A stretch of DNA of 64,000 bases, taken from positions 3,303-67,302 of IMG/VR virus record IMGVR_UViG_2529292906_000009; one strand, written 5' to 3'. The notes below the pieces were generated by a model. It did not search any database, was not told the DNA's origin, and saw nothing but the letters and a program-made list of their open reading frames with translations. The stretch is from a virus. Lineage: Duplodnaviria; Heunggongvirae; Uroviricota; Caudoviricetes. The position numbers and the translations under genes were made by a program. Shown piece by piece: positions 6,456 through 52,550 of the stretch (positions are counted from its first letter, which is position 1; each line of letters begins with the position of its first letter).

Positions 6456-6466
6456 TGGATTTGCCC

Positions 6467-7372
6467 CTATATTTCCAGACATCTGTTATCACTTAACCCA
6501 TTACAAGCCCGCTGCCGCAGATATTCCCGTGGCGAGCGATAACCCAGCGCACTATGCGGATGCCATTCGTTATAATGCTCGAACGCCTCTGCAAGGTTCT
6601 TTGCTGCCGTTAACCCGTCTGGTTTGGGCATGATACTGATGTAGTCACGCTTTATCGTTTTCACGAAGCTCTCTGCTATTCCGTTACTCTCCGGACTCCG
6701 CACCGCCGTGTTCTTCGGTTCAAGTCCCAACATCCGGGCGAACTGGCGTGTTTCATTAGCCCGGTAGCATGAACCATTATCCGTCAGCCACTCCACTGGA
6801 GACGACGGAAGATCGTTGCCGAAGCGGCGTTCCACCGCTCCCAGCATGACGTCCTGTACTGTTTCACTGTTGAAGCCGCCGGTAGTCACCGCCCAGTGCA
6901 GTGCCTCACGATCACAGCAGTCCAGCGCGAACGTGACACGCAGTCTCTCTCCGTTATCACAGCAGAACTCGAACCCGTCAGAGCACCATCGCTGATTGCT
7001 TTCTTTCACGGCCACTCTGCCTGTATGTGCCCGTTTCGATGGCGGTACAGCAGGTTTTCGCTCAAGCAACAGCGCATTCTGGCGCATGATCCGGTAAACA
7101 CGTTTGGCATTGATCGCAGGCATACCATCAAGTTCTGCCTGTCTGCGAAGCAGCGCCCATACCCGACGATAACCATACGTGGGCAGCTCTCCGATAACAT
7201 GGTGTATACGGAGAAGCACATCCGTATCATCAGTGTGACGACTGCGGCGGCTATCCATCCAGTCATCGGTTCGTCTGAGAATGACGTGCAACTGCGCACG
7301 CGACACCCGGAGACAACGGCTGACTAAGCTTACTCCCCATCCCCGGGCAATAAGGGCGCGTGCGCTATCCAC
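6467..7372 (-). CDS. insD: IS2 transposase InsD (OrfB, DDE)
   Basis: 301-aa ORF recalled as IS2 InsD; overlaps insC in the -1 frame. Confidence 0.9.
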
Positions 7373-7695
7373 TTTTTTGCCCGTCCATATTCAACGGCTT
7401 CTTTGAGGAGTTCATTTTCCATCGTTTTCTTGCCGAGCAGGCGCTGGAGTTCTTTAATCTGCTTCATGGCGGCAACAAGTTCAGAGGCAGGAACAACCTG
7501 TTCTCCGGCGGCGACAGCGGTAAGACTTCCTTCCTGGTATTGCTTACGCCAGAGAAATAACTGGCTGGCTGCTACACCATGTTGCCGGGCAACGAGAGAG
7601 ACCGTCATCCCCGGTTCAAAGCTCTGCTGAACAATTGCGATCTTTTCCTGTGTGGTACGCCGTCTGCGTTTCTCCGGCCCTAAGACATCAATCAT
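7330..7695 (-). CDS. insC: IS2 InsC (OrfA, HTH)
   Basis: [26 protein letters not shown]... recalled as IS2 InsC, 121 aa. Confidence 0.9.
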
Positions 7696-7793
7696 CTGTT
7701 CTCCAATGACTAGTCTAAAAACTAGTATTAAGACTATCACTTATTTAAGTGATACTGGTTGTCTGGAGATTCAGGGGGCCAGTCTAGCAACTC

Positions 7794-12578: not shown

Positions 12579-13210
12579 CCTTCACAGTTGTAATCACTAC
12601 AGCCTTCAAAATCATATGGGCTGTACTGCCAGGTTATTTTTCCGCAATGCGGACAATTCCAACGCACCTTCCCGCTTCGCGACTTCTTTCTTCTGTTTTG
12701 CTTTTTCAACCAGTCAGGCATGACCAAACCTGCGCCCTGAACCATTGTTCTGCGGTTAAAGTTATTGATATTGAACGTCCGGCGCTTTGCTGCATCAGCA
12801 ATGGAAAATGGCAACCAAACTATTCCTGGTTCGTTTTTGTTGGCGACGCTAAAGATGGTCGCTTTACTGAAGTCATCTGTTGGCAATCCACCGTGTTGAA
12901 GCCAGTAAACATCGTTGCCGTTCCAGCTACCTTTTTTGTAGGCCACATACGCAGTGCAATCTGACTCAATCAGGCTTTCTGTAGGGATGTACTGGCAATC
13001 AACGTGCCACACAGCCATTGCATCCACGCTATCAGCGCAAACAGGCTGATCGATATCTCGTCCACAATTCCAGGCTTTTTGGGCTGCTTCCAGCGTGTAA
13101 ACATGAGCGCGATCGATATCAGAACTGTAACCATTGCCGTTATGGCAATGGAATGAGGCGTTATTACCCACAGTTTCACGCAAGCACATCATGTAAAAGC
13201 GGTTATTCAC
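12566..13210 (-). CDS. Hypothetical protein, 214 aa, C-terminal CxxC zinc ribbon
   Basis: CPHCGK...CEGW at C-terminus. Confidence 0.5.
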   Translation of the reverse strand: MNNRFYMMCLRETVGNNASFHCHNGNGYSSDIDRAHVYTLEAAQKAWNCGRDIDQPVCADSVDAMAVWHVDCQYIPTESLIESDCTAYVAYKKGSWNGNDVYWLQHGGLPTDDFSKATIFSVANKNEPGIVWLPFSIADAAKRRTFNINNFNRRTMVQGAGLVMPDWLKKQNRRKKSRSGKVRWNCPHCGKITWQYSPYDFEGCSDYNCEGWRE

Positions 13211-13418
13211 TGGATGCCTCCCAGCAAATTTGTCTTATATAAGAACTGTTAACGCGCTTTACTTTCCCGTCGAACTCCAGTTTCTTTAGACGACGCAAAA
13301 CGTATGCCGTTTTGAGTGTGCGATATTTATCCCTAAGCCAGTTGGTCACGACGTAAGTCATACAGCGCCCGTGTTCTTCCAACACCCGAACTATTTCTTC
13401 GTCGGTTGGCTTGCTCAT
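13203..13418 (-). CDS. Small basic winged-helix-like protein, 71 aa
   Basis: ORF in track, overlapping neighbours by a few nt. Confidence 0.45.
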   Translation of the reverse strand: MSKPTDEEIVRVLEEHGRCMTYVVTNWLRDKYRTLKTAYVLRRLKKLEFDGKVKRVNSSYIRQICWEASSE

Positions 13419-13636
13419 TTTGTCGCTCCTTCAGCTTTCTCTACTTTCGCTGCCATGATTTCCAGCTTTTGTGCTGCCGATGCCGCTAACCTGTGAAATT
13501 CTTCATCTGTTTCAACTGGAATTGGTACAAACCTGACACCAATTTGAGCAAGGCTATGCGCCATTTCGAGACTTGCTCTTAACTCTGCTGGGGATGCTTT
13601 ATTCAGGCCGACTTCCTCACAAATAACTGATTGCAT
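13415..13636 (-). CDS. Hypothetical protein, 73 aa
   Basis: ORF in track. Confidence 0.45.
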   Translation of the reverse strand: MQSVICEEVGLNKASPAELRASLEMAHSLAQIGVRFVPIPVETDEEFHRLAASAAQKLEIMAAKVEKAEGATK

Positions 13637-13645
13637 ACGCTCGCC

Positions 13646-14251
13646 CTACTGAATACGCTCAAACTCGATTACCCAAACCCAGGGATTAGCACTCCAGCTT
13701 TCTTCGCCGTAGATGGATTCCCACAGGCGCTGGAACGCAACCTTGGCCATTGCGAAATCCCCCTTGGGAGTAAGGAATGTTCCCGGGTGATCAGGAAGCA
13801 AACTTCCAGCAGGCGGAACGCCCTCATCCCTTGCATCGCATTCGCTGATATCGTTCAACCGCTCAACGCGCACGTTGGTAATTTCCAGAAGAATGCGCGA
13901 TGCCCAGCGCGGCATGTGAATTGATGGCGTCCACTTTTCTGATACTGGTTTATTACAAACCTCGACCGGAACCCGGTGCGTTTGTTCTGTCCAGGAGTTA
14001 CGCACGCTTGCGCGATAAACCAGCGTTGCGACGTCCGTCGCTTTGCCATGTACCCGGTAGGTTTCGCGAACCCAAATACGATCGCCCGGTTGACCATATG
14101 GACAATGCTTGGCAAGCAACTCTGCGGCCACTGCCCGTCCATAGAATTTTTCTTCAACAATCCTGCGAGTCTGTGTTTTATTCCCGCCAAGAATTGCCCG
14201 GACCATCTCATCGTTAAAAATCATGCCGCGCTCTTTCACTTCGCCTTTCAT
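13646..14251 (-). CDS. ASCH-domain protein, 201 aa
   Basis: ILGGNKTQTRRIV matches ASCH GxKxxExR motif; strong RBS AAGGGGGA before ATG at 14251. Confidence 0.6.
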   Translation of the reverse strand: MKGEVKERGMIFNDEMVRAILGGNKTQTRRIVEEKFYGRAVAAELLAKHCPYGQPGDRIWVRETYRVHGKATDVATLVYRASVRNSWTEQTHRVPVEVCNKPVSEKWTPSIHMPRWASRILLEITNVRVERLNDISECDARDEGVPPAGSLLPDHPGTFLTPKGDFAMAKVAFQRLWESIYGEESWSANPWVWVIEFERIQ

Positions 14252-36590: not shown

Positions 36591-37451
36591 ATGAATCAAT
36601 CATTTATCTCCGATATTCTTTACGCAGACATTGAAAGTAAGGCAAAAGAACTAACAGTTAATTCAAACAACACTGTGCAGCCTGTAGCGTTGATGCGCTT
36701 GGGGGTATTCGTGCCGAAGCCATCAAAGAGCAAAGGAGAAAGTAAAGAGATTGATGCCACCAAAGCGTTTTCCCAGCTGGAGATAGCTAAAGCCGAGGGT
36801 TACGATGATATTAAAATCACCGGTCCTCGACTCGATATGGATACTGATTTCAAAACGTGGATCGGTGTCATCTACGCGTTCAGCAAATACGGCTTGTCCT
36901 CAAACACCATCCAGTTATCGTTTCAGGAATTCGCTAAAGCCTGTGGTTTCCCCTCAAAACGTCTGGATGCGAAACTGCGTTTAACCATTCATGAATCACT
37001 TGGACGCTTGCGTAACAAGGGTATCGCTTTTAAGCGCGGAAAAGATGCTAAAGGCGGCTATCAGACTGGTCTGCTGAAGGTCGGGCGTTTTGATGCTGAC
37101 CTTGATCTGATAGAGCTGGAGGCTGATTCGAAGTTGTGGGAGCTGTTCCAGCTTGATTATCGCGTTCTGTTGCAACACCACGCCTTGCGTGCCCTTCCGA
37201 AGAAAGAAGCTGCACAAGCCATTTACACTTTCATCGAAAGCCTTCCGCAGAACCCGTTGCCGCTATCGTTCGCGCGAATCCGTGAGCGCCTGGCTTTGCA
37301 GTCAGCTGTTGGCGAGCAAAACCGTATCATTAAGAAAGCGATAGAACAGCTTAAAACAATCGGCTATCTCGACTGTTCTATTGAGAAGAAAGGCCGGGAA
37401 AGTTTTGTAATCGTCCATTCTCGCAATCCAAAGCTGAAACTCCCCGAATAA
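36591..37451 (+). CDS. repA: Plasmid replication initiator RepA
   Basis: 286 aa; recalled match to P1 RepA; flanked by incC and incA iterons. Confidence 0.9.
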   Translation: MNQSFISDILYADIESKAKELTVNSNNTVQPVALMRLGVFVPKPSKSKGESKEIDATKAFSQLEIAKAEGYDDIKITGPRLDMDTDFKTWIGVIYAFSKYGLSSNTIQLSFQEFAKACGFPSKRLDAKLRLTIHESLGRLRNKGIAFKRGKDAKGGYQTGLLKVGRFDADLDLIELEADSKLWELFQLDYRVLLQHHALRALPKKEAAQAIYTFIESLPQNPLPLSFARIRERLALQSAVGEQNRIIKKAIEQLKTIGYLDCSIEKKGRESFVIVHSRNPKLKLPE

Positions 37452-37740
37452 GTGTGTGCTGGAGGGCAGCTGCATTTGAAAAATGTGCGCTGCCGGGAAT
37501 GCCTGCCCATTTTCCTGTTTTTGGTGTGCGCTGGAGGGTTGCGCCACGCAGTTTGCCCAGACATTCCCTCCAGCACACATCTAACCATCCAAGTTTCCCT
37601 CCAGCGCACATCTAATCTTCTATCTTTCCCTTCAGCGCACATATTTGATACCAGCGATCCCTCCACAACACATAATTCAATGCGACTTCCCTCTATCGCA
37701 CATTCTGGTCCTGCATCATCCCTCCAGCACACATCTAATA
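37452..37740. repeat. incA: nine iterons (three forward, six reverse) downstream of repA
   Basis: GTGTGCTGGAGGG-type repeats and their reverse complements CCCTCCAGCACACA counted directly. Confidence 0.8.
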
Positions 37741-37844
37741 GCCTCATCGCTATTTCTTTACGTGCAATAATTTACGCACGAATCAAAATAAGTTGCACGT
37801 AGCAGAATCAAACGTACAATTCACTCATACGAAATGATAAGGAG

Positions 37845-39056
37845 ATGATGATGAAACGCGATTACGGCGGTGTCGGCACCATAGCTCTTCGTGCAAGCGC
37901 ATTACTTAAGGCCATGAGTCAGGATATTGAAGATCAGCGCAAAGAGTTCAATCAGACCGAGTATTATCAGACGTTCACTCGTAACGCTGTGGCAAAGTTG
38001 CCGAAGCTGAGCCGCCGCATTGTGGAGCAGGCCATCAAAGAGATGGAAGATGATGGGTACCAGTTCAACAAGAAACAGGTCGGTAACGTTGAACAGTACG
38101 CGCTGACCATCCAGAACGTCATTGATATCTATGCCCACCGTAAGATCCCAAAATATCGCGACATTCACAAATCGCCTTACGTTATTTTTGTCGTAAACCT
38201 GAAGGGTGGCGTATCCAAAACGGTTTCCACAGTCACGTTGGCGCACGCTCTGCGTGTGCATCAGGATTTACTGCGTCACGATCTGCGCATTCTGGTAATT
38301 GACCTTGACCCTCAGGCATCCAGCACAATGTTCCTCGACCATACTCACAGTATTGGTTCCATCCTGGAAACCGCCGCGCAGGCGATGCTGAACGACCTGG
38401 ACGCGGAGACGCTACGCAAAGAGGTGATTCGTCCGACCATCGTTCCTGGCGTAGACGTGATTCCAGCCTCTATCGACGATGGCTTTGTTGCCAGCCAATG
38501 GAAAGAGCTGGTTGAAGAGCATCTTCCCGGACAAAATCAGTACGAAATCCTTCGACGCAATATCATTGATCGTGTTGCGGATGATTATGACTTTATCTTT
38601 ATTGATACCGGTCCACACCTGGATCCGTTCCTGCTCAACGGTCTGGCGGCCAGCGATTTGCTGCTTACCCCTACCCCACCAGCCCAGGTTGACTTCCACT
38701 CAACACTGAAATATCTCACCCGTCTGCCAGAAATGCTGGAGCAACTGGAGGAGGAAGGCGTAGAACCGCGTTTAAGCGCCAGCATTGGTTTTATGTCGAA
38801 GATGACCGGCAAGCGCGATCACGAGACATCACACAGCCTTGCGCGTGAGGTTTACGCCAGCAACATTCTGGACTCTTCTCTACCTCGTCTGGATGGATTT
38901 GAGCGATGCGGCGAGTCTTTCGACACCGTAATCAGTGCCAACCCGCAATCGTATCCAGGCAGTGCAGAGGCGCTGAAGAAGGCTCGAACCGAGGCCGAGC
39001 GTTTCACTAAGGCTGTGTTTGATCGAATTGAGTTTGTTAGGGGTGAGGCGGCATGA
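37845..39056 (+). CDS. parA: Partition ATPase ParA (type Ia)
   Basis: 403 aa; NLKGGVSKT deviant Walker A; N-terminal HTH extension; parB follows. Confidence 0.9.
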   Translation: MMMKRDYGGVGTIALRASALLKAMSQDIEDQRKEFNQTEYYQTFTRNAVAKLPKLSRRIVEQAIKEMEDDGYQFNKKQVGNVEQYALTIQNVIDIYAHRKIPKYRDIHKSPYVIFVVNLKGGVSKTVSTVTLAHALRVHQDLLRHDLRILVIDLDPQASSTMFLDHTHSIGSILETAAQAMLNDLDAETLRKEVIRPTIVPGVDVIPASIDDGFVASQWKELVEEHLPGQNQYEILRRNIIDRVADDYDFIFIDTGPHLDPFLLNGLAASDLLLTPTPPAQVDFHSTLKYLTRLPEMLEQLEEEGVEPRLSASIGFMSKMTGKRDHETSHSLAREVYASNILDSSLPRLDGFERCGESFDTVISANPQSYPGSAEALKKARTEAERFTKAVFDRIEFVRGEAA

Positions 39057-40018
39057 AAAAAATAGTTTCCCGTGGACGAGTGCTGGGCAAGAATAGCTCC
39101 GAGTTTGCTCGCATGCTTGAAGGCAGTGAAGGCACCAAAACCTTTACCCTAAAATCTGGCCGCCAGGCTAAATTTTTGCTTACCGTTGTGCTGAGTGGTG
39201 AGATTGAGTCGCGCACGTTCGTTGACCCGGCAGTTAACGGCCGCGATCAGTCTCTGCTCACCCCTGAGTCGGTAAGCGATATTTCCCGCACCATTAAATT
39301 GCAACAGTTCTTCCCGGCTATCGGTCGTATGGTTGGGGAGCGCATTGAGGTATTGGACGGATCACGTCGCCGCGCTGCGTGTATCTTCAATGAAACGAAA
39401 TTTGAGATTCTGGTGACGAAAGATGAGATCAGCCTGGCGGATGCACGCCAGCTGGCCATTGATATCCAGACAGCCCGCGAACACACCCTGCGCGAACTGG
39501 GTAAACGCTTCGAGGTTATGTATGGTAAGAGCATGACCAAAGAAGAGATCGCCCGCGCTGAGAACATTTCAAAGGCTAAAGTTACGCGCGCGTTCCAGGC
39601 GGCAGCGGTGCCGGATGAGATGATTGCTGTCTTCCCTGTTGCCAGCGATCTCGCCCTGCCAGATTACCAGTTACTGCTCCAGATCTCCGAGGATGCCAAC
39701 GCTAAAAGCGTGCCTATTGAAGAGCTGGTTGATACGGTGCGCGAACGAATTGCAGAGACTGAGGGCGCGAAAGAGGATAAAGCGAAGATACTGGCTATCT
39801 TCAAAGCGGAAAGCAAAAGCCTGAAGCCCGCGCCGGTTAAATCTGTGGTGGTTGAGAAGCTGCGAGACTTCTCTGACCGTCGCCAATATGCTCGAAAGAA
39901 GTCCGATCCGAAAAAACGGGTTGTCGCCTACGAGTTCTCCAGACTCCCGTCTGAAGTGCAAACTGAAATTGACGAAGCAATAAAAAAAATCATTGGGAAA
40001 ATGTCTGCTGGGGAATAA
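39053..40018 (+). CDS. parB: Partition protein ParB
   Basis: 321 aa; ILDGSRRR ParB box; start overlaps parA stop. Confidence 0.85.
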   Translation: MKKIVSRGRVLGKNSSEFARMLEGSEGTKTFTLKSGRQAKFLLTVVLSGEIESRTFVDPAVNGRDQSLLTPESVSDISRTIKLQQFFPAIGRMVGERIEVLDGSRRRAACIFNETKFEILVTKDEISLADARQLAIDIQTAREHTLRELGKRFEVMYGKSMTKEEIARAENISKAKVTRAFQAAAVPDEMIAVFPVASDLALPDYQLLLQISEDANAKSVPIEELVDTVRERIAETEGAKEDKAKILAIFKAESKSLKPAPVKSVVVEKLRDFSDRRQYARKKSDPKKRVVAYEFSRLPSEVQTEIDEAIKKIIGKMSAGE

Positions 40019-46369: not shown

Positions 46370-46659
46370 CAGTAAAAAATTCCTTACCCCTTAAAAGGGG
46401 AGAGGGTTAATCTACGTATGCTAAGCATAGATGTGGCCTCAGATTAATGTTAAGCGTCTTGCCGGACGCGTAATGTTATCTGGGGCTTTCTTCTGTTATT
46501 TGTTTGAGTGCTAGGTAGCAAAGAGAGCTAGTATTCATCAGGCAAATCTATCAATAAATAGCGTTAGTTTTTGTTGTGTGTATGTTTCTTTATTGTTATT
46601 GTGCTGTTTGTTTTTTAGGCGGCACAATTCCTATAATCTATAGAATAAAGGAAGTATAT

Positions 46660-46947
46660 ATGGCTGATGTACGCATTACTTGCATTACCCTCTCCGGCTC
46701 GCAATCAATCCATGAGCATATTACTCATGTGGGAAGTCCTCAATTTAATACTGGCAATGGGAAATGGACTGTTGAGCAGGTGATTAATGCTATTGATAAT
46801 AATCTCCATACATTCTATGTAACAGATAATGCAGGTAATCGTGTAGAAGTTGGGGTCGTTAATCCTGGTAATGGTGGAAGGCAGTTTATTAGAACGTATG
46901 CAGACAATCGATGGAATAATAATTTACTATCGCTACCAATCTGTTAA
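46660..46947 (+). CDS. DUF3892-like small protein, 95 aa, with its own sigma70-like promoter and terminator
   Basis: MADVRITCI...HEHITHVG...FYV.D..G..VEVGVV motif pattern; perfect TATAAT at 46632-46637; AAAGGAAG RBS. Confidence 0.55.
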   Translation: MADVRITCITLSGSQSIHEHITHVGSPQFNTGNGKWTVEQVINAIDNNLHTFYVTDNAGNRVEVGVVNPGNGGRQFIRTYADNRWNNNLLSLPIC

Positions 46948-47017: not shown

Positions 47018-48073
47018 CTATAAACTCTGAACAAGACGTTCAATTGCTGCACCATATCTTTCTAATGGTTCATTATTGATTTGTGGCTCAGTGTCATGGA
47101 TCTGATATCTGCCGGGTTTTATATCAAATAGAGGTCTTCCTAGATGGGAAGATACTATAGCTACGGAATGGTTATCTGGCACAGTAAACGTTTTTAAATT
47201 TCCGCCTTGGAACGCTGTTGGTTTATTCGTCCGCAGATTTTCAGCTCTATCCCTGATTTCGTCGAACATTGCCGAAAACGCTTTACTTGCTCGTTTGTCA
47301 TACTCTGTCGAACGATTAAAAACTAGAGAATGAATGACAGGAACCGCTAGACCAAACTGTTGACACCGATCGTAAAAGTTAACAGAACGATAATCGTTTT
47401 GTACTCCAACGCCATAAACCAACTGGCTTAGGTTATCCACTGCTCGAGCCGAAGAACCATCACTTGAGCAAGGTATTATAATTGCATTTGCTGCTATCAG
47501 TGATAGTTCGGTATAGGCAGAGAAACTGGGGTTGCAATCAATAAAGCAAATGGTTTCTTCGATACCTTGTTGTTGTGCACATGCAACAAGCAAATCTCGT
47601 AGCCACAGGTGGATGCTTTTCCATGAGTCAACTGGTAAGTTTACGCTGCTTAACTGATTGATTACTTGCGCCTGAACTTCCAGGCTTGGGTCGCCTGCAA
47701 TCAAAAATACATTGTCAGGGACATGCCCGTTAATTTCAGAGACATGAATTAAGAAACTTGTTTCTGAACCGGTAAGCATGTGGGGGCTGCGAGTTCTTCT
47801 GTCAAAGTACCCACCGACAGTTTTTCGTTGTTGAATTAAGCTCGCGAGGTTAGCAGCACCAGTACCGTTACCGCCGAGCAATATTTCAGATAAGTTAGCC
47901 TGCGGACACATATCTGCAAAAATAATACGCTTTTCTGGATTTTGCCTTGCGTATTCACAGGCCATAGCGAAAGATAAGTAGGTCTTTCCTACGCCACCTT
48001 TATTATTCCAAATAGCATACGATTTCATGGTATCCCCGGCGTTATCTGCTGTTTGTGTGCCAGCATAAGTCAT
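47018..48073 (-). CDS. ParA/MinD-family ATPase, 351 aa, no adjacent ParB-like partner
   Basis: KGGVGKT deviant Walker A, DMCPQANLS Walker A', ICFIDCNPS Walker B; GGAG RBS before ATG 48073. Confidence 0.7.
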   Translation of the reverse strand: MTYAGTQTADNAGDTMKSYAIWNNKGGVGKTYLSFAMACEYARQNPEKRIIFADMCPQANLSEILLGGNGTGAANLASLIQQRKTVGGYFDRRTRSPHMLTGSETSFLIHVSEINGHVPDNVFLIAGDPSLEVQAQVINQLSSVNLPVDSWKSIHLWLRDLLVACAQQQGIEETICFIDCNPSFSAYTELSLIAANAIIIPCSSDGSSARAVDNLSQLVYGVGVQNDYRSVNFYDRCQQFGLAVPVIHSLVFNRSTEYDKRASKAFSAMFDEIRDRAENLRTNKPTAFQGGNLKTFTVPDNHSVAIVSSHLGRPLFDIKPGRYQIHDTEPQINNEPLERYGAAIERLVQSL

Positions 48074-48336
48074 TATGCATCTCCATTACTATCCATGAAT
48101 TGAGTCAAAAAATATGTAAAAGTAGCAATGTATCACTCTTTTACTCATTATAAACGTTACAAGTTGTGATGGTTAGCTGTGTTTTTATCAGTACAAGTTT
48201 TGATCTGGCTTTGGGTTTTTATATATGGATATGTCTCAAAGATGCCCTGCAAAAGCGATCGCTAACTGTAAAAAATCAGATTGCATCTCCGACCTCAAAC
48301 TGAAAACGCCAGGTGACTCCAGATTAGAGCAATCTA

Positions 48337-49181
48337 TCACCCTCTGAATCCTGCCGGTATACCCCATTGTTCGTTATCTTTATTTTTGGCTAAAACCGCA
48401 TTAAGAGCTTCGTTTACCGTCATGCAATGCGGCAGATTATCGAAGTTTGATATCCCGCCAATATCAGGAGAACGCTTGTCCTTCAGGTAAGCATATTTCC
48501 GCGCTGCCGCCTCTACTTTCTGCTTGAACTCATGTTTTTGAGCGCGTTTTTTGGATAACCGCAGATTGTCAGCCTTTGCTTTTGCCTCAGCGATCCATGA
48601 AGTCAATTTTTTGAGTCTGGTCGTTCCGGCACCGCCGGAAACTGATCTTTTTGTTTTTTAACTTGTGACTTCTTATTCTTTATTGCCACGTCATCCTGAC
48701 AGGGGGAGGGGGTATCATTTTGACATGGGGGTGTGGATAAAAAATTAAATAAAGCCAATGTCTTAGCGAGAACAGCTTTAACCTTGGTTGCCGCTGAAGA
48801 GATCTTTAATTTGCTTTCAATCAGCGCATTTTTGGCTTGTTGTGCGAAGGCCAAAAAGGATGGTGTAAACCGGTACAGGTTAGCGCGACGTTCACGGTGA
48901 TCGCCGATAACAATCTCTACAGACAGGATTCCTTTGTTTACAGCTTCACGGAATGCACGAACGACGGTTGATTGGCTATAACCAGTTTCTGCCGCGATCA
49001 GGCGGTGAGGCTTGTGAATGAAGTATTCACTGGTTGTTGCCGCGAGATTTGCACATTGCGACAGGATATGCCAGGCGCTACGGGATAGACCGGAGTGTGT
49101 TACAAAGCAGGCCAATTCATAGCCAGAAAAAGTAAAATCGCTCATCGTTATACAGCTCAGGAAAGTGACTTTAGCCAGCAT
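48337..49181 (-). pseudogene. repL: RepL-like lytic replication gene, apparently split into 192- and 89-codon ORFs at a T6/A6 run (48607-48612)
   Basis: Two abutting ORFs; downstream one starts at a TTG inside the homopolymer with no RBS; combined length about 281 codons as recalled for P1 RepL. Confidence 0.4.
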
Positions 49182-49785
49182 TACAATGCTGGTGGTTCTT
49201 ACTACGTCTGTTAGCGCGTTGCCGCGACAGGTACCAGCACACCAGCATCAAGCAATCGCTTCATCAGCCACTGCTGACCCTTGCCGGTTATACGAGTCGT
49301 GAAAGAAATCCTGCTTCCATTGCTTGTATCGATCACGGTTTCTTTAAGGGTGAAATACCCACGGGATATGTATTCTTGTTTGGGGACGTTCCTGCGTTCA
49401 CCGGTTGCGATCAGAATTCCGTTATCACGCAACCAGGTGAAGAGATAGTTTTGGCCCAGGCCGAGCACTTTGGCATAGTTGCCGATTAGAACCCCGCTGG
49501 CGGTAGCAACGCGTTCGGCGAATTCGACTTTAGGTGCATCCATAAGCATTTTTTGCTCCAGCCGTTGCTTTTGCTCTGCCAGGTCGGCAGCCAAACGGAG
49601 AGCTTCAGGGAGACTCTGCGGAATAGCAGGTTGTAATCTTCCGGCTCGATAGTCGATAAATGTCTGGTTTACCTTCAGCCGAAACGCGGGAGAAATCCAG
49701 CCTGCGTACTCCACAGCGAGCAATTCATGGGCAAAAGTGCCGCCGCCACGGCCTTCGAACGAAACTATGCAATTCTGCATAGTTT

Positions 49786-50494
49786 CTTTTTGTGCACAGA
49801 AAACCCCCAGCTAGGCTGGGGGTTCCGGAAAGCTTTCAGCTTTGAGCCAGTTATTAAAACCCCTTTTGATTTGTTAAAACACCTTGCGGTCTGGCAACTG
49901 CAAGTGTCAAACAAGAAATCAAAAGGGGGTCCCAATGGGGAACGAAAAGAGCTTAGCGCACACCCGATGGAACTGTAAATATCACATAGTTTTTGCGCCA
50001 AAATACCGAAGACAAGTGTTCTACAGAGAGAAACGTAGAGCAATAGGCAGTATTTTGAGAAAGCTGTGCGAGTGGAAAAGCGTACGGATTCTTGAAGCTG
50101 AATGCTGTGCAGATCATATCCATATGCTTGTGGAGATCCCGCCCAAAATGAGCGTATCCGGCTTTATGGGATATCTGAAAGGGAAAAGCAGTCTGATGCT
50201 TTACGAGCAGTTTGGTGATTTGAAATTCAAATACAGGAACAGGGAGTTCTGGTGCAGAGGGTACTACGTCGATACGGTGGGTAAGAACACGGCGAAGATA
50301 CAGGATTACATAAAGCACCAGCTTGAAGAGGATAAAATGGGAGAGCAGTTATCGATTCCCTATCCGGGCAGCCCGTTTACGGGCCGTAAGTAACGAAGTT
50401 GGATGCAAATGTCAGATCGTGTGCGCCTGTTAGGGCGCGGCTGGTAAGAGAGCCTTATAGGCGCATTTGAAAAACCTCCGGCTATGCCGGAGGA
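49786..50494 (+). mobile_element. IS200 (IS200/IS605 family), about 0.7 kb; ends approximate
   Basis: tnpA inside; terminal hairpins CCCCCAGC-TAGG-CTGGGGG (49801-49820) and CCTCCGG-CTATG-CCGGAGG (50475-50493). Confidence 0.8.
49935..50393 (+). CDS. tnpA: IS200 transposase TnpA (HUH Y1), 152 aa
   Basis: MGNEKSLAHTRWNCKYHIVFAPKYRR... with HxH motif (HIHML); recalled match to IS200 TnpA. Confidence 0.9.
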   Translation: MGNEKSLAHTRWNCKYHIVFAPKYRRQVFYREKRRAIGSILRKLCEWKSVRILEAECCADHIHMLVEIPPKMSVSGFMGYLKGKSSLMLYEQFGDLKFKYRNREFWCRGYYVDTVGKNTAKIQDYIKHQLEEDKMGEQLSIPYPGSPFTGRK

Positions 50495-50792
50495 TATTTA
50501 TTTCAAGCTCTTCGATGAGCTGTTTTGCTGACAGCGTTCTTAGCCATTGAGCTGGCGCTTTATGGGCACCGAGTCCGCTCGCTCTGTGTAGAGCATTAAG
50601 GTTGTAACGGCCAGCGCGGTCGGTCGTAATTTCAACACCACAAATAACGGGCAGAGTGGTTGAAGGATCGACATTTTGATGAAGGTTTGATATATTCATA
50701 TCCGCATTGAATGTTTGTTGCATTTTTTCTCCAAATTTGCATCAACCTTCAATCACCAGCTCGAAATGGTGATTCTTTGCACTTAGAAAACG

Positions 50793-50809
50793 AAATTTAT
50801 TAGAGCAAA
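50793..50809 (-). promoter_or_regulatory. C1-operator-like 17-mer (16/17) upstream of kilA
   Basis: aaatttattagagcaaa; position corresponds to the C1-controlled promoter of the lytic replicon. Confidence 0.5.
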
Positions 50810-50887
50810 TTTTTCTGACTCGATCCAGATCGGGTTGGACGATCTGCTCAGAAACCTGCCAGTTTGCTGGCAGGTTTTTTTCTTTTG

Positions 50888-51934
50888 TTAACCTATTGCT
50901 ACTGGTTTTAACAAACCAGCATCAAGTAGCTTGCGAGTTAACCACTGCTGGCCTTTACCCGTTAATTGGGGCGTCAGCCGTATCTGGTAGCCATTTTCAT
51001 CATCCAGCACCACTTCTTTCACCGTGAAATACCCGGCGTTGATGTACTGTTGGCGCGGTACGTTTTTGCGCGCACCAAAAGCCATGAGAATGCCGTTCTG
51101 GCGCAACCATGAGAAAAGGGCGTTTTGCTTAAGTCCAACGACCTTTGCAAAGTTCCCGATCAGGATTCCATTAGCCACTGATACCCGGTCGGCAAAATCG
51201 ACTTTAGGGGCTGCGGCCACCAGCTGTTGTTCCAGCTGCATTTTCTGTTCTGCCAACTCGGCAGCCAGGCGTAGAGCTTCTGGTAATGTTTGGGGGATCG
51301 ATGGGGCAGGGGAGTTTGCCTGCTGCAATTCTTCCAGTTTGTCGATCAGCGAACGGCGGACCGCTTTCGATTCGCGAGCAGCAACGCGCAGGGCTTGTTT
51401 GTATGTCATTACTATAACTACCTGATCCGCTCCACCTTTTTTCTTATCCATAGGGGTTACGAAGATTTCGTAACCCTCCCCATCAAGCTCATCCTTAACT
51501 CTGGCAATGAAATCATTGTTGCGAACTGGTTTTTCGCTACATAATTTCCGTGCCTCATTGACCATCTTTAACAGTGTCAGGCTGTCGATTGTGTCTCCGG
51601 TGTTGGGGATAATATTCACGGCTGGTGCTGGCGTAGCTGACGTAACAGGTGCTGGTTTTTCAACATTCAAATTATTACCGGTCATTCTATGTGCCTCCTT
51701 TCTCATTTCTGCTGCCACTGTTGCGTAACGTAGACGTCCTTGTTCAATCAAATAATCCCTGATCTCGGCTATCAGTAGCCTGTTGATCACAGCCTTATCT
51801 GTTCGGGTATAAAAACGCCTGGTTATCATGAAATAGTTAGCAATTGCGCCGGGGATCTCCCGTGTCGGCATACAGGCAGTATGCAAAGCGATCGCTTCGG
51901 CTATTTCATTACGGGTGACGAGAGGTTTTTTCAT
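50888..51934 (-). CDS. ant: Antirepressor-like protein (N-terminal Rha-like region, C-terminal KilAC domain), 348 aa
   Basis: C-terminal APKVDFADRVSVANGILIGNFAKVVGL...QQYINAGYF KilAC motif paralogous to kilA C-terminus; immI-like position. Confidence 0.6.
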   Translation of the reverse strand: MKKPLVTRNEIAEAIALHTACMPTREIPGAIANYFMITRRFYTRTDKAVINRLLIAEIRDYLIEQGRLRYATVAAEMRKEAHRMTGNNLNVEKPAPVTSATPAPAVNIIPNTGDTIDSLTLLKMVNEARKLCSEKPVRNNDFIARVKDELDGEGYEIFVTPMDKKKGGADQVVIVMTYKQALRVAARESKAVRRSLIDKLEELQQANSPAPSIPQTLPEALRLAAELAEQKMQLEQQLVAAAPKVDFADRVSVANGILIGNFAKVVGLKQNALFSWLRQNGILMAFGARKNVPRQQYINAGYFTVKEVVLDDENGYQIRLTPQLTGKGQQWLTRKLLDAGLLKPVAIG

Positions 51935-52152
51935 AAAACCCCCTGAACGTCGGCAGAGAAGGGGAGGTTCCAGTAACTAAGTGAATTGCGCGAGTTAGTT
52001 GAAAAACGGGCAGTAAAAATGCAGGGGCCATCAGGCAATTGGGAGCGTGCTTCGTCTTCTGTTGCTGCGATAACGAAGTGATAGTGGTGTTTTTTACAGG
52101 AATAGAAACGCCAGATGAATTCTTGGCGTGCGCAAGGATTGGCATTAACCAT
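51931..52152 (-). CDS. Small protein, 73 aa, overlapping the antirepressor start (icd-like position)
   Basis: ATGA start/stop overlap with ant; size and position as recalled for P1 icd. Confidence 0.4.
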   Translation of the reverse strand: MVNANPCARQEFIWRFYSCKKHHYHFVIAATEDEARSQLPDGPCIFTARFSTNSRNSLSYWNLPFSADVQGVL

Positions 52153-52159
52153 AGTTACG

Positions 52160-52460
52160 GCCTCGTAAGTTGATAAACAACCTGCGACCCGCTGTCAAAC
52201 AGGTGGCAGGACGTGACAGGGTTGACAGACTGGCACTTACGAAACCAGCAGGCCGAAGCCTCCCCATCACGCCCCACCATAATTCGGGCGTAACGTGGTT
52301 TTACGGACACAAAAATACCGCAATATCGGAAATGTGCGGTTGTCCGCGTAAGTATTCAGGCTGTCAAACCTGGTCGCAGAATTTGCTGCGACGGCGGAAC
52401 TATAAGCCTGAACGATTAAAAGGTCAATATGATGCGAAAAGATAGCATTCGTGACTTAAA
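52160..52460 (-). ncRNA. Region expected to encode a c4-like antisense immunity RNA and its targets; exact gene not delimited
   Basis: Leader of icd/ant contains repeated GTTTGACAGC and complementary CTGTCAACC elements and several short hairpins. Confidence 0.3.
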
Positions 52461-52482: not shown

Positions 52483-52550
52483 GTTTGTTTAATAAATACA
52501 CAAATGGATCTAATAACCTCTTTTTTTAAAGGCGAAAATATGTACCCTAA

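Follow-up and report, generated by a model that had tools for sequence, protein, structure and literature searches.

The lytic replicon of bacteriophage P1 is arranged as P53/Op53, kilA and repL, with oriL situated inside repL (Hansen 1989 and Sternberg & Cohen 1989, via PMC9948254). P1 is stated to need transcription of repL for its lytic replication, the AT2 region with its 13-mer-like element has been proposed as the DNA-unwinding element of oriL, and substitutions at the 13-mer-like motif of AT2 abolished RepL-driven replication (PMC9948254). In one CRISPRi study knock-down of repL did not lower the plating efficiency of P1, although repL is still counted there among the known essential genes (PMC10695390). 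In pJIE250-3 and other defective P1-like elements lytic replication has been lost and plasmid functions kept (PMC6906374; PMC10879196), whole modules having been deleted there and cargo gained.

IS200 was first discovered as a polar insertion, the hairpin at its left end is a bidirectional rho-independent terminator, and the promoter of its antisense RNA points to the left end, with the transcription start at IS nucleotide 153/154 (PMC4513863). The original polar insertion of Salmonella, hisD984::IS200, is located beside a hairpin and a T-run. The locus described below combines these two systems: a copy of IS200C, likewise inserted beside a hairpin and a T-run and likewise expected to be polar, lies in antisense orientation in the lytic operon of a phage-plasmid, where its polarity is deduced from sequence.

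A P1-type lytic replicon in the DEC6A element

The analysed DNA (64 kb at full length, hereafter the window) belongs to a P1-like phage-plasmid of E. coli DEC6A, represented by the draft contig AIFV01000003.1 (67.3 kb); c1 and about one third of the element are outside the window. P1-like (Punavirus-type) synteny and high identity are present across phage and plasmid modules, blocks 95.8–100% identical to a complete P1-like plasmid span most of the window, and C4 RNA was found together with its targets. The lytic replicon keeps the gene order of P1; its nucleotide sequence is 98.6% identical to P1 across repL plus the 3′ part of kilA (window positions 48323–49791) and 94.5% identical over positions 50501–52403. 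Its assignment to the P1 type in the preliminary description is borne out by Op53, P53 and P53as, all of which are the same as in P1 (Table 1), P53as being the only sigma-70-like site given by the promoter scan. The 13-mer-like motif of AT2 is present as well. Three differences from P1 are apparent: an IS200C copy interrupts kilA, which is intact in P1; the reading frame of repL shifts after codon 176, the T-run of AT2 being one base shorter; and the place downstream of repL held in P1 by rlfA/rlfB is occupied by a DUF3892 gene and a gene for a ParA-like ATPase. No homologue of rlfA/rlfB that might serve as a back-up is present in the window, and PADLOC gave no match for the DUF3892 and ParA-like cargo.

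Table 1. Features of the kilA–repL region (window coordinates)
Feature	Position	Strand	Basis or remark
repL, frameshifted as sequenced	48337..49181	-	P1 alignment
13-mer-like motif GATCTTTTTGTTT, AT2 region	48644..48656	+	motif quoted in PMC9948254
Lesion in repL: T6 for T7 (A7 to A6 on the coding strand)	48654..48659		comparison with P1 and nine relatives
kilA 3′ fragment, residues 75–266	49211..49791	-	P1 alignment and Pfam
PrepL, predicted internal promoter	49413..49441	-	downstream of the IS; P1 annotation; hexamers unchanged
Insertion target in kilA: hairpin (49761–49786) and T5 run	49761..49791	+	
IS200C, 709 bp	49792..50500	+	antisense to kilA; junctions versus P1
IS200 left-end hairpin	49802..49824		perfect 10-bp stem; IS nucleotides 12–34 in PMC4513863
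tnpA 5′UTR / art200 region	49802..49925	+	Rfam STnc490, 146.4 bits, full-length
tnpA, intact Y1 (HUH) transposase, 152 aa	49935..50393	+	Pfam Y1_Tnp, 3.8e-38
IS200 right-end hairpin	50475..50493		GC-rich, terminator-like on the kilA-sense strand; terminator scan
kilA 5′ fragment, codons 1–74	50501..50723	-	P1 KilA alignment
Antisense promoter P53as (PaskilA)	50668..50696	+	hexamers same as P1
C1-controlled promoter P53 (PkilA) and operator Op53	50793..50827	-	P1 annotation mapped via alignment
P53 hexamers	-10, 50799–50804; -35, 50822–50827	-	same as P1
Op53, 17 nt	50793–50809		overlaps P53, upstream of kilA; same as P1

Splitting of kilA by IS200C

Insertion of IS200C into kilA is certain. 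The gene starts on the minus strand from the ATG at 50723, and P1 kilA aligns on both sides of the 709-bp insert, so that intact kilA (266 aa, KilA-N plus KilAC/ANT) is absent and its near-identical halves are parted after codon 74. The 5′ fragment is read as a 97-aa ORF (50430–50723) ending with 23 residues encoded by the IS, and exactly this product was also found in two other assemblies. Beyond the IS, an ORF of 189 aa beginning from Met78 retains the end of KilA-N and the whole KilAC/ANT domain. The Pfam KilA-N profile is cut in two, positions 5–54 falling in the 97-aa ORF and 69–106 in the 189-aa ORF, and the splitting of this domain by an IS200 copy, as claimed earlier, is confirmed both by this division and by the P1 alignment. 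The same is true for the intact tnpA and the terminal hairpins of the preliminary description: besides Y1_Tnp the transposase matches NCBIfam transpos_IS200 at 1.9e-43, above the cut-off, and a hairpin is found at either end of the IS. The TnpA protein is 100% identical to IS200C-annotated TnpA in five other plasmids, while the IS as a whole has 98.6–99.2% identity to the IS200C copies annotated in other plasmids, with which it shares the length of 709 bp, the single Y1 transposase gene, the subterminal hairpins, which stand in place of terminal inverted repeats, and the art200/5′UTR region. A search of the literature for papers linking IS200 with P1 kilA found none.

Transcripts from P53 meet the right-end hairpin as the first obstacle and the left-end hairpin as the second. 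On the kilA-sense strand the former is composed of CCUCCGGC-AUA-GCCGGAGG, then UUUUUCAAAU, with a predicted RNA fold of −18.6 kcal/mol (z = −3.0), while the latter is followed by UUUUCUGUG. Two terminator-like hairpins are thus placed by the IS between P53 and repL. The assertion of the preliminary description that transcription from P53 into repL is blocked draws support from these hairpins and from what has been published on IS200 polarity, and we retain such a polar effect as plausible only. The left end of the IS faces repL, and the promoter of the antisense RNA is therefore oriented towards this gene.

Three extra T at 50501–50503, at the right junction, may represent either the end of the IS or a target duplication, and the same TTT is found 3′ of the IS at an intergenic site in other plasmids. 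Three other plasmids have IS200C in the same orientation in the T-run that follows the terminator hairpin of ant1; the element is recorded at two sites within 400 bp, with at least three junction variants. The kilA::IS200C junction of the window is itself present in six complete plasmids, all with intact repL. In the public records for E. coli 2020N21-110, 98228, 98200 and 98190 both junctions and orientation are the same and RefSeq calls the kilA halves pseudogenes; their repL is intact, unlike that of the window. The same-junction copies, which match exactly an IS found at another site, differ from the IS of the window at 6 positions, and a cluster of 4 of these lies within 80 bp. To judge from this pattern, the sharing of the insertion may result from common descent with gene conversion or from independent insertion at the same site.

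A one-base deletion in repL as sequenced

As the preliminary description had it, repL is listed as two ORFs, of 192 aa (48603–49181) and 89 aa (48337–48606). The frameshift had been placed at the T6/A6 run of the ORF junction (48607–48612), and this location has to be abandoned: P1 is identical there, also having T6, and the shifted frame merely meets a stop, TGA at 48603–48605. When repL is compared with P1 and nine relatives a single indel is seen, the loss of 1 nt at 48654–48659, some 45 nt upstream of the junction and outside the stretch 48600–48615 that had been singled out for inspection of reads. In RepL as sequenced, 176 native residues are followed by 16 out-of-frame ones and the C-terminal 105 are missing, and an intact gene (281 aa) is absent from this draft sequence, in which the deletion is either real or an assembly error; the truncation claimed for RepL consequently holds for the sequence as it stands and would disappear with such an error. 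Residues 193–281 can still be read as the 89-aa ORF, whose TTG start is the Leu193 codon of intact RepL; given the identity of this codon, the start arises from the mechanical listing of ORFs and does not attest a second gene. Both pieces have a precomputed match to Pfam PF26868 Phage_P1_RepL, while the Pfam and NCBIfam libraries searched locally returned no RepL family above threshold. The shortened T-run is the 3′ end of the 13-mer-like motif, and the T/A tract of AT2 is accordingly one base short.

The run length characteristic of intact 281-codon repL, T7, was registered in about 99% of approximately 1,000 complete-plasmid and genome records, as well as in all 38 metagenome contigs, with T6 in none of the latter. 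Other T6 calls in the complete-plasmid collections are four (CP016549, CP042641, CP090325 and CP121349); all of them come from error-ridden assemblies with many frameshifted genes and were rejected as representatives of a natural A6 allele. A6 is also found in the drafts AIGC01 (a different plasmid), AKNH01 and JAEEGD01, the neighbouring genes being intact in the last one. The WGS prefix of the AIGC draft is adjacent to that of the window, which suggests the same sequencing project, and AIGC and AKNH probably both date from 2012 and share a sequencing project. The window contains a second private −1 change, in the T8 run at 52521, and RepL repaired by one base is the same as an allele seen on 106 contigs. 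Among runs of at least 7 bases in the aligned blocks of a relative, 10 of 15 are unchanged in the window, and other 1-nt indels versus this relative lie outside its annotated CDS, except for one at an alignment end. A8 at 30338 differs from the relative but is exactly common to 59 records, from which it follows that run-length differences in the DEC6A assembly can be real. A stop-creating allele, A6-T-A5, occurs in two independent complete plasmids as a real null allele of the same tract and looks derived from A6. On these comparisons we regard the deletion as about equally likely to be real and to be an assembly error.

Independence of the lesions and the state of the replicon

Since each lesion occurs alone in other plasmids, the IS200C insertion with intact repL and repL damage in this A-tract with intact kilA in other assemblies, the two are not linked, and their being apart is far commoner than their being together. 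Judged by this distribution they are independent hits and not a coordinated system. A frameshift that accumulated under selection relaxed by the IS was considered too and is not supported, each lesion being found separately elsewhere. Apart from kilA and repL, 55 conserved CDS of the window were tested, among them lpa, ban, dam, phd/doc and genes for morphogenesis; all 55 are full length and free of stops, and no structural, lysis or regulatory gene of the phage was found lost in this set. Because these genes are intact, the damage is recent rather than a sign of long-term domestication, and the domestication of a phage-plasmid proposed earlier is not shown by this DNA. What is seen is a known module decaying in an ordinary way through two kinds of mutation, each individually recurrent. 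It is conceivable, though rather improbable, that more general rules operate here: the A7CA5 tract in AT2 would be a mutational hotspot, possibly reversible by slippage, that repeatedly switches off RepL and perhaps oriL, hairpins with T-runs would be preferred targets of IS200C, and both would form recurrent routes to the loss of lytic replication before other decay. In favour of this are the 7 of 9 other split repL loci with their lesion in the 13-nt tract and the two IS200C sites within 400 bp.

We favour, with a probability of roughly 60%, the interpretation that the kilA–repL lytic replicon of the DEC6A element is impaired by the IS200C insertion and the repL deletion as ordinary independent hits. 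After relief of C1 repression, transcripts from P53 would be translated only into the 97-aa KilA stub and would then pass about 650 nt untranslated through the IS and two terminator-like hairpins; few of them would reach repL, and those that did would encode RepL without its last 105 residues. Replication of the element would then be confined to the plasmid origin, with no amplification of DNA for a burst. Several observations weigh against it: PrepL downstream of the IS is intact, the six plasmids with the same insertion keep repL, and CRISPRi knock-down of this gene left P1 plating unreduced (PMC10695390). A possible alternative, to which we give somewhat less than an even chance, is that only the IS is real and the repL deletion is a homopolymer miscall, with an undamaged repL in the cell; the replicon does not need kilA, and the element may still be inducible if some transcription reaches repL. 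The many-frameshift origin of the other complete-plasmid T6 calls, the lack of T6 in metagenomes, the same A6 in an adjacent-prefix draft and in AKNH, the second private −1, the common allele recovered by repair and the intact repL beside the same IS junction all speak for a miscall, whereas the otherwise clean window, with its intact CDS and mostly unchanged long runs, the genuine-looking A8 at 30338, the natural null A6-T-A5 and the A6 of JAEEGD01 amid intact genes speak for a true deletion.

It is unlikely that both lesions are real but leaky, partial function being kept through a low level of RepL restored by −1 ribosomal or transcriptional slippage on A6, together with transcription from PrepL or read-through of the IS terminators. 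From the codon layout, tRNA-Lys slipping by −1 on AAA-AAA would give exactly the wild-type KKTKRS, and the PrepL hexamers are intact; however, a frameshift-stimulating element was not found, efficient transcriptional slippage would call for a longer run than A6, PrepL is a prediction in the P1 annotation, and the deletion also changes the AT2 tract in cis. The antisense RNA promoter directed towards repL (PMC4513863) and the knock-down without a plating effect, suggesting that little RepL is needed (PMC10695390), are in line with residual function. A similarly low probability is given to selection for the double hit, with a silenced lytic replicon being favoured on the path to a plain plasmid, for example if the frameshift compensated harmful RepL freed from C1 control after the IS insertion. 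Lytic-replicon loss is known in pJIE250-3 (PMC6906374), P1-like phage-plasmids are documented to become plasmids through the loss of genes (PMC10879196), cytotoxicity has been raised as a possible effect of high RepL activity (PMC9948254), and repL lesions and IS200C insertions recur in this module in several lineages. Nevertheless, the lesions are far more often separate than joint, no other phage gene in the window is decayed, and the recurrence is explained by hotspots, namely the A7CA5 tract and the target of hairpin plus T-run. Hardly credible is the idea that a two-ORF repL is the natural arrangement in some lineages of the P1 family, which the preliminary description had named as a finding that would speak against the damage. 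Although the 89-aa ORF is called alone on 75 contigs in exactly this form and on 210 as a variant, every inspected locus with this call has repL damaged, by an indel or a stop within the A-tract or by a lesion elsewhere in the gene (within the 13-nt A7CA5 tract in 7 of 9 other split loci), the start of the ORF is an internal Leu codon of the intact protein, and T7 is nearly universal; the two-ORF organisation was therefore rejected.

For annotation it means that split repL calls (192 + 89 aa), common in public data, are in many cases sequencing errors in the A7-run and should not be taken as biology without read support. In contrast to pJIE250-3 and its kin, the window carries two point-like lesions with the rest intact. 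If both are real, the DEC6A element would possess full virion genes without a working lytic replicon, an early snapshot of a phage-plasmid becoming a plain plasmid, and would offer a natural allele for testing the need for RepL and AT2 in P1 induction, which CRISPRi has left unclear.

Interruption of kilA by IS200C

The 64-kb stretch belongs to a P1-like phage-plasmid. Exact-protein match assigned it to the 67,302-bp contig AIFV01000003.1 in the draft assembly of E. coli DEC6A (GCA_000249595.2), and its segment 48200-50900 is 98.6-99.5% identical to P1, P7 and many P1-like plasmids on either side of a ~0.7-kb insert. Alignment to P1 stops after 50501 and picks up again at 49791, that is within kilA, which starts at 50723 on the minus strand. 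KilA is broken after residue 74, and the Pfam KilA-N domain is divided between a 97-aa N-terminal ORF (profile positions 5-54) and a 189-aa C-terminal ORF (positions 69-106). The insert is 98.6-99.2% identical to the annotated IS200C copies of five other plasmids; its TnpA is identical to that of these five copies, and the tnpA 5'UTR region matches Rfam STnc490 with 146 bits. Splitting of KilA-N by an IS200 with intact tnpA and terminal hairpins, as noticed in the preliminary description, was fully confirmed by P1 alignment, Pfam, NCBIfam and Rfam.

Coordinates of the features considered (window positions unless stated otherwise)
Feature	Position	Strand	Details
IS3-family insertion sequence	6457-7782	-	orfA 7330-7740, orfB 6467-7372
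DUF3892 gene	46576-46947	+	in the 1.7-kb segment 46495-48236 downstream of repL
ParA-like ATPase gene	47018-48073	-	351 aa; in the 1.7-kb segment 46495-48236
13-mer-like motif of AT2	48644-48656	+	shortened T-run continues the motif
IS200C insert	49792-50500		709 bp; first bases GTGCACAGAAAACCCCC, last bases GGATATTTA
IS left-end hairpin	49802-49824		present
tnpA	49935-50393	+	intact; Pfam Y1_Tnp 3.8e-38; NCBIfam transpos_IS200 1.9e-43
IS right-end hairpin	50475-50493		present
IS200C at the ant1-terminator T-run, three plasmids	~50875-50885		loci of other plasmids: L002 3230-3300, L003 3230-3300, L006 4835-4905
C4 antisense RNA	52199-52284		intact (Rfam)
a1/b1 target element of C4 RNA	52353-52405		intact (Rfam)

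The C1-controlled promoter P53 upstream of kilA, its operator Op53 and the antisense promoter P53as do not differ from those of P1. The P53 transcript would be translated into a 97-aa stub ending at 50430 and would then cross the IS untranslated and antisense to tnpA. Long untranslated RNA favours Rho-dependent termination. The first obstacle on this way would be CCUCCGGC-AUA-GCCGGAGG followed by UUUUUCAAAU, and ~650 nt further the transcript would reach the left-end hairpin and then UUUUCUGUG. According to the literature, the left-end hairpin of IS200 acts as a rho-independent terminator in both directions, and it was a polar insertion that led to the discovery of IS200 (PMC4513863). The suggested block of transcription from P53 into repL has, therefore, a plausible mechanism, but its completeness is opposed by the predicted internal promoter PrepL (P1 annotation), which lies downstream of the IS and is unchanged, and by the promoter of IS200 antisense RNA, which is directed towards repL.

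On the plus strand the left flank of the IS carries a hairpin (49761-49786) followed by T5. In E. coli ETEC1701, E. albertii RM9973 and E. coli 405 IS200C resides in the same orientation ~380 bp away, upstream of P53, where it occupies the T-run 3' of the ant1 terminator hairpin; the junction differs among the three plasmids. Since the kilA and ant1 sites both have a hairpin and a T-run on the same strand, both are hairpin-plus-T-run sites. This agrees with target selection by IS200C on the basis of sequence and structure and suggests its preference for such sites. Six complete E. coli plasmids, namely three records of the 2020N21-110 strain set (Taiwan) and those of strains 98228 (Egypt), 98200 and 98190, match 48300-50800 with both junctions as a single unbroken piece (100% coverage), and the exact 97-aa fusion ORF is present in two more short-read assemblies. 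Six positions, four of which fall in a stretch of 80 bp, distinguish the IS copy of the window from copies at the same kilA junction. In comparison with five other IS200C copies, the 80 bp at 50015-50093 contain four substitutions that are private to the window, all synonymous. IS copies of the other kilA-junction plasmids are identical to that in the intergenic site of ETEC1701. This pattern suggests either shared descent with gene conversion from another IS copy or independent insertion of a different IS variant at the same site.

Position and reality of the repL deletion

The repL ORFs of 192 and 89 codons are indeed present, but the lesion does not lie at their junction, where the preliminary description had placed it. 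The T6 run at 48607-48612 is ~45 nt off and is likewise T6 in P1, while the TTG taken for the start of the second ORF is the Leu193 codon of intact RepL. The sole indel in repL relative to P1 and nine relatives is the loss of one T at 48654-48659 (T6 versus T7, or A7->A6 on the coding strand). It converts ...SQVKK-TKRSVSGG... into ...SQVKK-QKDQFPAVPERPDSKN-stop, so that RepL as sequenced consists of 176 native and 16 aberrant residues, with the final 105 gone.

We estimate the probability that this deletion is real as about one half. Several results favour an artefact of sequencing. T6 was found in 2/514 and 3/511 records of complete genomes and plasmids, representing four distinct plasmids, and all four lie in assemblies with numerous broken genes: in CP016549 8/8 fully shown CDS at the locus are frameshifted, in CP042641 kilA is split too, in CP090325 tail, baseplate and dnaB genes are frameshifted, and in CP121349 17 of 45 genes are broken. 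Metagenome contigs have T7 in all 38 occurrences, and RepL, if repaired, equals an allele present on 106 contigs. The same A6 appears in draft AKNH01 and, within a different plasmid, in the AIGC draft, whose WGS prefix close to AIFV suggests the same project. A second private shortening was registered in the intergenic run 52521-52527 upstream of the c4 region (T7 versus T8 in 2020N21-110), which is one base shorter than in the three closest E. coli records and is a possible sign of homopolymer under-calling in the DEC6A assembly. In favour of a real mutation, all 55 other conserved CDS tested in the window are full length and without stops, and other single-base indels relative to a 98% relative fall outside its annotated CDS, with one exception at the alignment end. 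Runs of at least 7 bases in the aligned blocks of this relative are unchanged in the window in 10 of 15 cases, and the A8 run at 30338, another difference from it, occurs in identical form in 59 records. Finally, the A6-T-A5 variant of two complete plasmids seems to be derived from A6 and does not have the form of a homopolymer miscall.

This variant, GTTAAAAAATAAAAAGATC, is shared by CP088422.1 (L058) and CP051361.1 (L064), creates a stop at ~codon 176 and represents a null allele of repL. An 89-aa ORF identical to that of the window is among the gene calls of 75 contigs, and 210 contigs have another 89-aa variant. Among nine other split-repL loci listed, A6 is present in three (drafts AIGC01, AKNH01, JAEEGD01) and the stop-creating A6-T-A5 in two (CP088422, CP051361); the remaining ones comprise one A12, one A7CA4 and two with lesions elsewhere. 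Judging by these sequences, the A7CA5 tract is a hotspot of lesions or miscalls. In seven of the nine loci kilA was called intact (266 aa), and in two there was no kilA call. Plasmids 2020N21-110 and 98228, both checked directly, combine the kilA::IS200C junction with an intact 846-bp repL. Since each DEC6A lesion thus occurs in other records without the other, the two are independent events; neither is unique, and each is already in public records.

State of the element and the domestication question

Most of the window is covered by blocks 95.8-100% identical to one complete 97-kb P1-like plasmid, and lpa, ban, dam, phd/doc, C4 RNA and the morphogenetic genes within it are intact. The immI control region is apparently normal, because C4 RNA and its a1/b1 target are preserved. 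Proteins of the replication/partition module 36651-40000 are only 42-58% identical to those of the otherwise similar 2020N21-110 plasmid, a divergence that indicates module exchange. An extra 101-aa ORF (26054-26359) between ban (dnaB-like) and the next gene is missing in the reference plasmid used. Plasmid pQ502, otherwise 99.9% identical, lacks a ~640-bp segment (13032-13669) and the IS3-family element located where two small overlapping hypothetical genes meet.

P1 genes rlfA/rlfB, which were at one time considered a candidate region for an alternative lytic origin (PMC9948254), are absent, their place being taken by the DUF3892 and ParA-like ATPase genes. This segment gave no PADLOC match; the plasmids of 2020N21-110, 98228 and strain 405 have a small 81-aa gene there, while the same ParA-like gene is present in two other P1-like plasmids inspected (ECO12, H1998). 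As to whether growth of the whole phage requires RepL, there is one loose end: plating efficiency of P1 did not change when repL was knocked down by CRISPRi, although the authors list repL among known essential genes missed by their screen (PMC10695390).

Phage-plasmid domestication, proposed from the two lesions, has a plausible mechanism but was overstated, given the intactness of other CDS (55/55) and the chance that its repL pillar is a sequencing error. Nor is the idea new, because lytic-replicon loss is documented for the P1 derivative pJIE250-3 (PMC6906374) and conversion of P1-like phage-plasmids into plasmids via gene loss has been described (PMC10879196). Both lesions are ordinary damage types in a well-known module, and the DEC6A sequence supports no more than a recent defect. 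What these data add is the hairpin-plus-T-run targeting of IS200C, the A-tract as a place where lesions or miscalls of repL cluster, and the location of the deletion in AT2 of oriL. This A/T-rich region of repL is required in cis for RepL-driven replication, as reported by Huan et al., and ends with a 13-mer-like motif 5'-GATCTTTTTGTTT-3' resembling the unwinding repeats of oriC (PMC9948254). If the deletion is real, it would both truncate the initiator and introduce a one-base change into the proposed unwinding element.
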